Positions 45,326 through 49,968 of a stretch of 64,000 bases of DNA are shown piece after piece (the first letter of the stretch is position 1; each line of letters begins with the position of its first letter). This DNA is from Candidatus Heimdallarchaeota archaeon (GTDB lineage Archaea > Asgardarchaeota > Heimdallarchaeia > JABLTI01), in contig JAHLVW010000066.1 in assembly GCA_019058275.1 (NCBI GenBank), positions 230,781-294,780 on the forward strand, read 5' to 3'. Below the pieces are notes generated by a model. It did no database searches. It saw nothing but the letters and a program-made list of their open reading frames with translations, and was not told the origin of the DNA. Position numbers and translations under genes: made by a program.

Positions 45326-45360
45326 TATAGTAAACTACTATACTATAGTGAATTACTATA
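45326..45360. promoter_or_regulatory. Tandem palindromic operator TATAGT-N5-ACTATA x2
   Basis: TATAGT-AAACT-ACTATA (45326-45342), C, TATAGT-GAATT-ACTATA (45344-45360), ending 34 bp upstream of the AbrB-like gene. Confidence 0.65.
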
Positions 45361-45394
45361 AATCAAATAAATGAGAGATAAGTAGTTTTTCTGG

Positions 45395-45778
45395 GTGCCG
45401 GTAATGATAAACAAGAAGAGTTTACATTCTACTATTAACCTAAATATCTCTGAGAATCACAACCTTCTTTATTACAATATCCCTAAAGAAATTGTTCAAA
45501 AATTAGATCTAAATGATAAAGATCTTTTAGAGTACGACATTCGAGAGGATAATTTCTTCGTTCGAAAGAAAGGCTCTCAATCTTTGCCTGTGAATACAAA
45601 TAACAATATCTTTTCAGGATTACTAGTTGAACGGAATATAACACGAAATAATACCGTCCTAAGAACAAATTTACCCAAAGAGGTTGCTCAACCTTTGATT
45701 ATAGCTAAGGGCGATCAAGTTGAGATAACCATCGAGGGGAAGGTCATTGTAGGCCGAAAAATAAGCTCAAAAGAATAA
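45395..45778 (+). CDS. Tandem AbrB/MazE/SpoVT-domain DNA-binding protein
   Basis: Two swapped-hairpin units: NIPKEIVQKLDLNDKDLLEYDI and NLPKEVAQPLIIAKGDQVEITI. Confidence 0.8.
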   Translation: MPVMINKKSLHSTINLNISENHNLLYYNIPKEIVQKLDLNDKDLLEYDIREDNFFVRKKGSQSLPVNTNNNIFSGLLVERNITRNNTVLRTNLPKEVAQPLIIAKGDQVEITIEGKVIVGRKISSKE

Positions 45779-48495: not shown

Positions 48496-48507
48496 GGTTG
48501 TGATAAC

Positions 48508-49968
48508 ATGGGTTTACAAGAATTCATACAAAAAAGAAGTATAAGAACAAACATCATGGGTAGTTTCGTTATACTGTCAATATTATTTGTTGGTGGAATA
48601 AGCGGACTATCATACTTATTGTTCAAACGTGCTGGTGTTCAAACTATTGATGATAGTACAACAGCCTTAGAAGAGCAAATTACATCAAATATCAATGCTA
48701 CTGCGACTAAAAACGCACAGATTATCAATGAAAAATTATCTAGTGCGGAAGCGATGGTCCGGTATCAAGCGTCTGAATTAGAGTATCTATTTTCAGGTGA
48801 AAATAGATATGGTGACCGGGATGTTTACTACGATTATGTCTTTGAATACAACCAGTCGTATGCTCCATCTGATCTTTACAATGACTTAGCATATGGTGTA
48901 AATCTTAGCTGGAATTATGCTAGCTATTACATCGAAGGTACAAATTCAACTCACTACCAACCTGCTGCTGGTTTGCAGAATTATACTCTCGAGACTGTAG
49001 CATCCATGGATCATGTTTTCCAATATATCCATAACAATGCTCCAGAATTTAGATGGTTATACATAGCATTCGAGTTAACTGATGGCACTGATATTTTCAT
49101 CAACTATCCAGGAAGTATCTTGATGGACGATGATCTAATCAGAAATGATATACTAGAATGGTATGAAGCAAGTCTTGAAGATTGGTACACTGAAGTTGAC
49201 AGTGGTCATGGTGACATCGTTTTCACAGAACCATACGCTGATGAATTTGATGGTGTTCCATTAATAACTATTGGTAGAAGAGTATATCTTGATGATATAA
49301 CTGATTATGCTGTAATCTGTGGTGATATTTCCATAAATGATATGGTAAATAAAATCATCAATGTTAAAGTCTTGGATACAGGTTATGCATCACTAATTAC
49401 TAGCACAGGATTGACTGTTGCTCATCCTGAGAATACCGATTTTTCACATATCAATCAGGTTGAAACACATTCCAATGGCACATCTGCTCTATCAGCTGCT
49501 CAAATTGCATTAATAACCTCTGGAGAATCAGGAATCATCAAATACACAAGGGATGATGAAGAGCGTTTCCTTGCTTACCAACCAGTTGGTAAAGGTGATT
49601 ACATTAGTATCATCATCGTACCTGTTAATGAAGCACTTGAAGCAATAGAACCAGTAGAAGAACGAATGAACCAAGCTATTACTGCAAACCTAAACACTAT
49701 TTGGATTATATTAGCAGTTAGTTTTGCTGTTGGTATAACAATTGGATTAATCCTAACAGCCTATATCACTAGACCATTTACTCATTTAATTCAAGTAGCT
49801 AGATCACTATCAACAAGACGTGCACGGAAAGACATAATGGAAGGTTTGATGACAGAAATTGATCCGAAACTGCTGGAAAGCGAAGATGAGTTAGGAGATC
49901 TAACTCGAGCATTCAAAGGAATGATAGATTCGGTTCAACAAGCAGAACGGGAGAAAAATGGTGATTAA
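48508..49968 (+). CDS. Membrane receptor: TM-dCache-TM-HAMP with no output domain
   Basis: dCache (INYP, DWY, FTEPYAD, ICGD, GYASLI..HP), TM2, HAMP (RPF...DELGDLTRAFKGM), stop about 15 aa later. Confidence 0.85.
   Translation: MGLQEFIQKRSIRTNIMGSFVILSILFVGGISGLSYLLFKRAGVQTIDDSTTALEEQITSNINATATKNAQIINEKLSSAEAMVRYQASELEYLFSGENRYGDRDVYYDYVFEYNQSYAPSDLYNDLAYGVNLSWNYASYYIEGTNSTHYQPAAGLQNYTLETVASMDHVFQYIHNNAPEFRWLYIAFELTDGTDIFINYPGSILMDDDLIRNDILEWYEASLEDWYTEVDSGHGDIVFTEPYADEFDGVPLITIGRRVYLDDITDYAVICGDISINDMVNKIINVKVLDTGYASLITSTGLTVAHPENTDFSHINQVETHSNGTSALSAAQIALITSGESGIIKYTRDDEERFLAYQPVGKGDYISIIIVPVNEALEAIEPVEERMNQAITANLNTIWIILAVSFAVGITIGLILTAYITRPFTHLIQVARSLSTRRARKDIMEGLMTEIDPKLLESEDELGDLTRAFKGMIDSVQQAEREKNGD

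Follow-up and report, generated by a model that had tools for sequence, protein, structure and literature searches.

Gene arrangement and domain composition of R1 and R2

A pair of adjacent genes for transmembrane receptors, designated R1 and R2, was analysed in a stretch of 64,000 nucleotides (the window) from contig JAHLVW010000066.1 of a Candidatus Heimdallarchaeota archaeon. Both genes belong to a + strand run of four closely packed open reading frames (ORFs), in which they are preceded by a gene for an AbrB-like protein and followed by a gene for a 602-residue decarboxylase dependent on pyridoxal phosphate (PLP). The AbrB-like gene, R1 and R2 are separated by intergenic gaps of 17 and 12 bp. 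This arrangement agrees with the sequence-only reading, an earlier annotation of the same DNA, which had described three co-oriented genes with the same gaps. The four genes are located as follows:

45395 (GTG start) or 45404 (ATG start) to 45778, + strand: AbrB-like gene, 127 residues from the GTG and 124 residues from the ATG
45796 to 48495, + strand: R1, 899 residues
48508 to 49968, + strand: R2, 486 residues
49993 to 51801, + strand: SpeA-like PLP-dependent decarboxylase, 602 residues from a TTG; the ATG at 50008 is the likelier start

The layout of R1 was determined as a first transmembrane segment (TM1, residues 5-31), a dCache_1 domain, a second transmembrane segment (TM2, 394-424), a HAMP-like segment (425-478), about 5.5 tetratricopeptide repeats (TPRs) of 40 residues (482-699), and a von Willebrand factor A (vWA) domain with a metal ion-dependent adhesion site (MIDAS; 703-888). 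The corresponding Pfam matches were dCache_1 at 226-371 (E = 2.7e-17), TPR_12 and related families at 466-620 (E = 8e-26), and VWA at 706-871 (E = 1.5e-11). R2 consists of TM1 (16-39), dCache_1, TM2 (394-421) and HAMP (416-478), and its C-terminus lies only 8 residues beyond HAMP. The Pfam matches of R2 were dCache_1 at 187-366 (E = 1.3e-15) and HAMP (PF00672) at 416-478; the latter scored 22.2 bits, just below the 25-bit cut-off, and PF00672 was above the cut-off in many R2 orthologues. Both proteins have the features of transmembrane sensors of the dCache_1 family (PF02743), with two hydrophobic segments per receptor, one on each side of the Cache domain, and with Cache sensor domains as their PDB sequence matches.

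A HAMP domain was not called by Pfam in R1. Despite this, residues 425-478 of R1 are regarded as the HAMP equivalent because of the profile-profile alignment with the R2 family, in which the segment matches the HAMP of R2 column by column (hhalign probability 100, E = 1.4e-65). The alignment of the R1 and R2 family profiles spans TM1, dCache, TM2 and HAMP. P426 and E455 of the R1 HAMP segment were invariant in 35 orthologues. The identity of R2 to R1 was 25% over residues 12-456, and the two proteins are each other's only Cache paralogue in this genome.

The cytoplasmic half of R1 (residues 422-899) was modelled with AlphaFold2, resulting in a mean predicted local distance difference test (pLDDT) value of 79.7. 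The model shows the helix pair of HAMP, eleven helices of the TPR type that repeat with a period of 20 residues, and the alpha/beta fold of a vWA domain. The block-mean pLDDT of the vWA fold was ~80-93, and the HAMP helices were of low confidence, as expected for a monomer. The MIDAS residues D710, S712, S714, T780 and D808 were invariant in the 35 R1 orthologues and align with the MIDAS of the CLCA1 VWA structure 6PYO, the closest vWA by sequence (E = 8e-8). As judged from these residues, the vWA domain of R1 carries an intact MIDAS, for which metal binding is predicted. The TPRs were most similar to the peptide-binding TPRs of the LGN/Pins and KLC types. A Foldseek search with the cytoplasmic model resulted in generic TPR proteins only (LGN, KLC1, OGT), and a TPR-vWA precedent was not among them.

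Six proteins were scanned with Pfam: the AbrB-like protein, R1, R2, the products of two upstream genes and the downstream decarboxylase. No match to HisKA/HATPase, MCPsignal, GGDEF/EAL, cyclase or PP2C domains was detected in them at E ≤ 0.01. The two further downstream products had NCBIfam matches to PEBP-type and decarboxylase families only, and no enzymatic signalling domain was present in the precomputed Pfam lists of ~170 orthologue clusters. The sequence-only reading had described R1 as a TM-dCache-TM-HAMP-TPR-vWA receptor with an intact MIDAS and R2 as a paralogous sensor ending after HAMP, and had reported no histidine kinase, chemoreceptor (methyl-accepting chemotaxis protein, MCP), cyclase or phosphatase domain. 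This description was borne out by the Pfam and hhalign results, the AlphaFold2 model, the residue conservation and the 8-residue tail of R2. On the evidence of these profiles, the sensor half corresponds to an ordinary dCache_1-HAMP receptor, and the output half is non-standard.

Conservation of the pair and relation between R1 and R2

R1 was followed directly by R2 wherever the contig continues in 79 Asgard loci, with a sole exception, and the R1-R2 gaps were ~10-90 bp. The pair was detected in Heimdall, Hod, Thor and Hermod lineages, in the complete genome of Lokiarchaeum ossiferum and in Promethearchaeum. In the exceptional locus (L063, Thorarchaeota bin8 chromosome, 10001-15855), R1 is split over two ORFs, and neither R2 nor the decarboxylase is present. 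Their place is taken by genes for a TRAP_beta/BatD-like protein and for an agmatinase-like protein of the arginase family.

The full R1 architecture was found in ~67 clusters and the R2 architecture in more than 100, and the named clusters were nearly all Asgard-labelled. In databases, the proteins are named only 'tetratricopeptide repeat protein' or 'cache domain-containing protein'. The R2 relatives are 470-520 residues long and have dCache-HAMP alone, apart from one subgroup which adds a Zn-ribbon and HEAT repeats. In this subgroup (P0122-P0128, including P0125), the extended R2 orthologues are ~665 residues long, so both partners have docking modules. Two objections had been set out in the sequence-only reading, namely that the pair might not be kept in related genomes and that R2 might be the truncated remnant of a kinase receptor. 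Neither was substantiated, as R1-R2 is retained across Asgard lineages and no kinase was found on any of the more than 100 R2 clusters.

In the tree of the sensor halves, R1 and R2 formed two groups (SH-aLRT 100). Each group spans the same lineages and, therefore, the duplication predates the divergence of these lineages.

The family extends beyond archaea, with relatives in protist protein sets and giant-virus bins. A profile search of 1.8 billion representatives also uncovered full-length relatives that form an additional, remoter clade. A single-module relative was found in Platysulcus tardus. Full-length relatives were present in three IMG/VR giant-virus bins, one of which has an R2-like gene directly upstream of the R1-like gene. 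Fusions of 1500-1640 residues were also detected, in which an R2-like TM-dCache-TM-HAMP module stands ahead of a complete R1-like module. The N-terminal module of a fusion was aligned end to end with the R2 profile (hhalign probability 97, E = 1.1e-10, 455 columns), and the R1 profile matched fusion residues 682-1603. One R2-R1 fusion originates from the EukProt set of Mallomonas annulata; another is located on a 354-kb contig of giant-virus-like content, which is rich in ORFans and carries U-box and zinc-finger genes. Fusion of two modules is classical evidence of their physical cooperation.

The complex prediction for R1(1-480):R2(1-486) resulted in a score of 0.81, compared with 0.00 for the best of 3 controls. 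In the calibration of the test, 58 of 80 solved complexes and 2 of 110 mismatched pairs attained this mark; the counts are only roughly valid here, since own alignments were used. The runs shared at least 89% of the contacts, and the pLDDT of the partner was at least 79. The predicted R1:R2 contacts are continuous along TM1, the N-terminal helix, TM2 and HAMP. The pass of the complex model may stem from its likeness to solved Cache/HAMP dimers. Most likely, R1 and R2 constitute one heteromeric transmembrane sensor. The heterodimer proposed in the sequence-only reading was thereby strengthened by the adjacency of the genes, the ancient duplication, the fusions and the score of 0.81; its preference over homodimers was not, the model being compatible with these too.

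Ligand pocket and genes adjoining the pair

The motif of amino-acid-sensing dCache_1 domains (dCache_1AA) comprises Y121, R126, W128, Y129, Y144 and D173 in PctA numbering; R126 binds the ligand carboxylate, and Y144 and D173 bind the amino group (PMC8915833). PctA was among the best PDB sequence matches (E = 6e-11). The top match of the R1 sensor was 3LIB (E = 3.7e-12), with an alignment covering the second half of the sensor only. Aligned to PctA, the pocket stretch was W-D-P-L-E-F-D-W-Y in R1 and Y-E-A-S-L-E-D-W-Y in R2. The equivalent of R126 is Phe in R1 (Phe225) and Glu in R2 (Glu224). Due to the loss of R126, neither receptor matches the dCache_1AA motif; the equivalents of Y129, Y144 and D173 are kept in both, and W128 is also kept in R1 aligned with PctA. 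In the R1 family (n = 35), the R126 position was occupied by Glu in 18 members, Phe in 6, Tyr in 5 and Arg in 3. The corresponding numbers for the R2 family (n = 35) were 20 Glu, 6 Asp and 5 Gln. The Y129 and D173 equivalents were invariant in both families, and that of Y144 was invariant in R2 and present in 34 of 35 R1 sequences.

The gene next to R2 is assigned to a SpeA-like arginine decarboxylase, arginine being the predicted substrate. This gene, which is located beyond the coordinates of the sequence-only reading, and the altered ligand pocket together form the strongest hint at the function of the pair. Residues 3-590 of the 602-residue protein were aligned with positions 4-591 of the 636-position model NF003763 (SpeA; E = 1.2e-94). 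The score of 318 bits was under the 369-bit cut-off, and the protein also aligns with TIGR01273. The PLP-lysine and active-site motifs PIKVN, HAHPGSQ, GGGLPIDY and TCDSDG are present in the translation. No other arginine decarboxylase was found in this 92.8%-complete genome, and the pyruvoyl-type enzyme (PF01862) was likewise not found in it. The genome has two Orn_Arg_deC_N genes, both inside the 64-kb window.

In most loci of the Heimdall, Hod, Thor and Hermod lineages, the decarboxylase gene adjoins R1/R2. This adjacency was observed in four Heimdall-class families as well as in Thor and Hermod. Three kinds of orientation relative to the pair were observed: downstream on the same strand, upstream and divergent, and convergent. 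Among 301 Asgard genomes, R1 and the decarboxylase occurred together in 78, the decarboxylase only in 21, R1 only in 13, and neither in 189. Within a single genus with 21 genomes, R1 and the decarboxylase were found in the same four members. A SpeA-like gene without an R1 orthologue was observed in the Heimdall-class genomes G016 and G026; in G016 (C1:1149642-1154377), two SpeA-like copies are located 1.3 kb apart, one of them in an 886-residue open frame.

The residue at the R126 position was in correlation with the presence of the decarboxylase gene. In 57 loci that were long enough to be judged, the Arg was absent in all 53 with an adjacent decarboxylase, and an acidic replacement was present in 41 of these. 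The three judgeable loci that keep the Arg were all without the decarboxylase. The same contrast was found in two separate sister pairs of a quick FastTree tree, which was rooted with the eukaryote/giant-virus clade. The canonical Arg was kept in Loki-type receptors, in some Heimdall/Odin-labelled ones and in all sampled eukaryote/giant-virus relatives. Amine sensors arose from amino-acid sensors by the loss of the first motif positions (PMC10589655). The carboxylate-binding Arg of the Asgard pair has been lost where the pair is linked to a carboxylate-removing enzyme, which suggests that the ligand is agmatine or a polyamine made from it. The pair probably senses a cationic amine without a carboxylate, for example agmatine, putrescine or a different polyamine.

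The remaining features around the pair are:

43966 to 45264, + strand: upstream ORF of 432 residues without a Pfam or NCBIfam match
45299 to 45306, + strand: TATA-box-like element TTTAAATA, read from the sequence, of the putative AbrB/R1/R2 promoter
45326 to 45342 and 45344 to 45360, + strand: tandem palindromes TATAGT-N5-ACTATA, likely the AbrB operator (predicted binding)
51828 to 52292, - strand: YbhB/PEBP-family gene, between the two PLP decarboxylase genes
52434 to 53873, + strand: second PLP decarboxylase, LysA/ornithine-lysine decarboxylase-like, 479 residues, with a TIGR01048 match

The AbrB-like protein matched PF04014 with 43 bits (cut-off 24.7) in two stretches of one chain. By this match, it is a tandem AbrB/SpoVT swapped-hairpin domain protein with predicted DNA binding. 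GGGTG at 45393-45397, ahead of the ATG at 45404, may be a Shine-Dalgarno site. Position 45326, at which the region described in the sequence-only reading starts, is not a coding start; it turned out to be the first base of a palindrome, and the frame from it hits a TGA at 45374. The TTTA(A/T)ATA core of the TATA-like box was conserved in the alignment of six genus loci, and the palindromes were conserved in 5 of the 6. Both palindromes are exact and are the sole matches in the window at ≤ 1 mismatch. In the rest of the genome, one other, single site was found, no more than a control pattern yields, and the window and genome search revealed no palindrome upstream of other genes that would indicate an AbrB regulon. 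An AbrB orthologue immediately ahead of R1 was a feature of this genus alone. This pattern fits an autoregulated layer of control that is specific to the genus and does not belong to the core of the system, and the place given to AbrB within the signalling system by the sequence-only reading could not be upheld. RNA data sets were not listed for 45300-52000, the runs containing this stretch being sediment DNA only.

The second PLP decarboxylase matched TIGR01048 with E = 6.5e-58, below the cut-off. Its gene is downstream of the SpeA-like gene in all sister loci and is kept within the genus only. The position hints at a small amine-synthesis cluster, and the membership of the second decarboxylase in the system is uncertain.

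In Thor, Hermod, Hod and Loki loci, the pair is adjoined by a gene for a cytoplasmic FG-GAP-like beta-propeller/Zn-ribbon protein, which in Thor also has winged-helix-like C-terminal domains. Examples of this candidate docking partner of the vWA domain are located at 6535-7980 in L023, 14196-15335 in L081 and 11337-12641 in L104. The propeller gene is absent from the window, and searches of the genome with Thor and Hod queries gave no full-length orthologue, only partial repeats in larger proteins. The upstream ORF at 43966-45264 was considered as a diverged propeller and rejected, as it has no match in Pfam or NCBIfam, is unlike the Thor propeller and has no counterpart in sister loci. An HDAC-like (histone deacetylase-like) neighbour in a Thor locus was considered as an acetylpolyamine amidohydrolase and rejected; its best PDB matches were HDAC6 and a generic histone deacetylase-like amidohydrolase (HDAH), which lends no specific support to a link with polyamines. 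In the Odin-labelled loci L021/L022 (2949-5296), R2 is followed by a RING-finger protein of 97-101 residues and then by an Snf7 (ESCRT-III) gene on the opposite strand; no decarboxylase was found in these loci.

Proposed function of the pair and comparison with known systems

The results are read, tentatively and with a probability of about 45%, as a heteromeric, kinase-free amine sensor which is tied to agmatine/polyamine synthesis and acts by docking. R1 and R2 would form a parallel dimer held via TM1, the long N-terminal helix, TM2 and HAMP. The outward-facing dCache_1 pockets would bind a cationic amine by the retained amino-group residues, and the signal would pass through the HAMP bundle to the sole cytoplasmic output, the TPR groove and the vWA MIDAS face of R1. 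This output would bind or release a protein partner, with no catalysis involved, similar to the partner recruitment supposed in the sequence-only reading. In this way, the pair would probably match agmatine/polyamine synthesis by the adjacent SpeA-like enzyme to the external level of the amine. In this genus, a tandem AbrB protein acting as a repressor on a double-palindrome operator of its own would additionally control the operon.

Several observations weigh against this amine sensor. The decarboxylase occurs without R1 in the 21 sampled genomes mentioned above, two of which (G016 and G026) are single-contig. Related genomes are non-independent, and the association with the decarboxylase rests on perhaps two evolutionary events. 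Loki-type and giant-virus/protist pairs keep the Arg and have no adjacent decarboxylase, which means that the core receptor is not intrinsically tied to amines or to SpeA. The R1 of this window has Phe, not an acidic residue, at the R126 position. A run of 7 T at 49986-49992 lies between the stop codon of R2 and the likely ATG of the decarboxylase (50008); this run may act as an archaeal terminator or attenuator, and the co-transcription of R2 with the decarboxylase is, therefore, uncertain. A docking peptide for TPR or MIDAS at the C-terminus of the decarboxylase was considered and rejected, as the acidic tail was unconserved in 52 orthologues. Finally, the complex test passes close cousins of the true partner, so that a heterodimer and homodimers are inseparable by it.

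A heteromeric enzyme-free receptor whose task is unrelated to polyamines is a rather unlikely alternative. Such a receptor would respond to another ligand, and its TPR-vWA part would tether or release a partner that is a regulator or belongs to the cytoskeleton or the trafficking machinery. Elsewhere, this partner would be the propeller/Zn-ribbon/winged-helix protein, here perhaps AbrB, and the decarboxylase would be just a frequent neighbour. The propeller/Zn-ribbon gene beside R1/R2 in Thor, Hermod, Hod and Loki, the small RING protein after R2 in the Odin-labelled locus, and the Zn-ribbon and HEAT repeats of some R2 orthologues are all consistent with it. The same applies to the Loki, protist and giant-virus versions without an adjacent decarboxylase and to the gene of the DNA-binding AbrB in the slot directly upstream of R1. 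However, the adjacency of the decarboxylase survives three changes of orientation across class-level lineages, and the loss of the pocket arginine tracks this adjacency. In addition, neither the Thor nor the Hod queries revealed a full-length propeller orthologue in this genome, and the AbrB gene is confined to one genus.

It is unlikely that R1 and R2 are independent homodimeric receptors which are merely co-transcribed, with R2 as a ligand sink, a decoy, a dominant-negative modulator or a signaller through an unlinked partner. The near-universal adjacency over 79 Asgard loci, the parallel gene trees of R1 and R2, the fusion of the modules in a single polypeptide elsewhere and the predicted interface, unbroken through TM1, TM2 and HAMP, argue for a joint receptor instead. 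Two homodimers would nevertheless agree with general knowledge, as dCache/HAMP receptors studied to date are homodimers, and with the R1-R2 identity of only 25%; the leniency of the complex test towards close cousins, known from its own calibration, also speaks in their favour.

More doubtful still is a wider proposal, in which R1/R2 would be an ancestral Asgard device inherited by eukaryotes, with a ligand-gated, integrin-like MIDAS grip on a soluble partner (propeller or transcription factor) and, in lineages whose pocket was rewired from amino acid to amine, with feedback at the level of the receptor, free of a kinase, on agmatine/polyamine synthesis. Its starting point is the R2-R1 fusions of protists and the gene pairs of giant viruses. 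It is highly improbable that R1 is a membrane-anchored structural or adhesion scaffold with a Cache domain for surface binding and no role in signalling: vWA and TPR do co-occur in membrane proteins without a known signalling role, e.g. the BatA/BatB vWA-TPR proteins of the Bat aerotolerance operon, but HAMP is conserved after TM2 in both proteins and ahead of the TPRs in R1, the ligand-pocket residues are clearly constrained, a MoxR-type ATPase or Bat-like neighbour was not found in the Pfam scan of six proteins, and the R1 order of TPR and then vWA, both cytoplasmic, is unlike that of BatB.

To our knowledge, almost nothing is known about environmental sensing by Asgard archaea. The R1/R2 family is among the most widely conserved Asgard membrane sensors and lacks the textbook prokaryotic outputs. 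If the amine-sensor interpretation is true, the family defines a route of signalling in which a protein docks to TPRs and a MIDAS vWA. Its pocket would have been re-tuned from an amino acid to a decarboxylated amine along with the recruitment of the decarboxylase gene. Sensing would also be linked to agmatine, which archaea need for polyamines and for the agmatidine of tRNA-Ile. The protist and giant-virus relatives, which are partly fusions, make the family relevant to how signalling components are exchanged between Asgard archaea and eukaryotes. The cultivated Lokiarchaeum ossiferum and bins labelled Promethearchaeum sp. also carry forms of the pair, which makes experiments possible. Particular to the window are the AbrB/operator layer, the replacement in the R1 pocket by an aromatic instead of an acidic residue, and the lack of a propeller gene.

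A literature search revealed no paper describing the TPR-vWA output or the R1/R2 receptor pair, which is in line with the sequence-only reading, where no characterised prokaryotic system of this kind had been known. The closest sensors are the dCache_1AA receptors PctA, PctB and PctC of Pseudomonas aeruginosa, which have the same TM-dCache_1-TM-HAMP topology and whose W128, Y129, Y144 and D173 are kept. In contrast to the Pct receptors, R126 is replaced in R1/R2, the output is TPR-vWA or none instead of an MCP domain, and two obligatorily paired paralogues are present instead of one homodimer. The dCache_1AM sensors (PctD, PacA, McpX and the Methanosarcina mazei kinase sensor 3LIB) have also lost the carboxylate-binding positions and kept the aspartate and the aromatics. 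Their motif includes an insertion above the pocket with the R103/D133 pair as well as aromatic residues for cation-pi contacts, and archaeal members have been reported from Halobacteriota only (PMC10589655). The chemoreceptors McpU and TlpQ for polyamines and histamine also count among the nearest systems. The acidic replacement of the Asgard families is outside this published motif.

The alpha2delta/CACHD1 proteins also combine dCache_1 with a MIDAS vWA in one protein, and their dCache regions matched the R1 sensor with E ~4e-9. The vWA of alpha2delta sits inside dCache and is extracellular (PMC8915833), whereas that of R1 (703-888) is C-terminal, behind TM2, HAMP and the TPRs. No match between the R1 vWA and the alpha2delta vWA was obtained at E < 0.01. 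Judged by domain order and vWA sequence, R1 is not an alpha2delta/CACHD1-type protein. The docking of an integrin-type vWA to a propeller is comparable by analogy only, in that a MIDAS vWA is encoded beside an FG-GAP-like propeller in Thor, Hermod, Hod and Loki.

MCPs and LapD are, similarly to R1/R2, transmembrane HAMP receptors without an enzymatic domain of their own. The output of MCPs is the binding or release of CheA/CheW, and that of LapD is the binding or release of the protease LapG. As MCPs and LapD are already enzyme-free docking receptors, R1/R2 do not form a new category. The difference lies in the docking module, which is neither an MCP hairpin nor a GGDEF/EAL module; in R1/R2, it is composed of TPRs and a MIDAS vWA.

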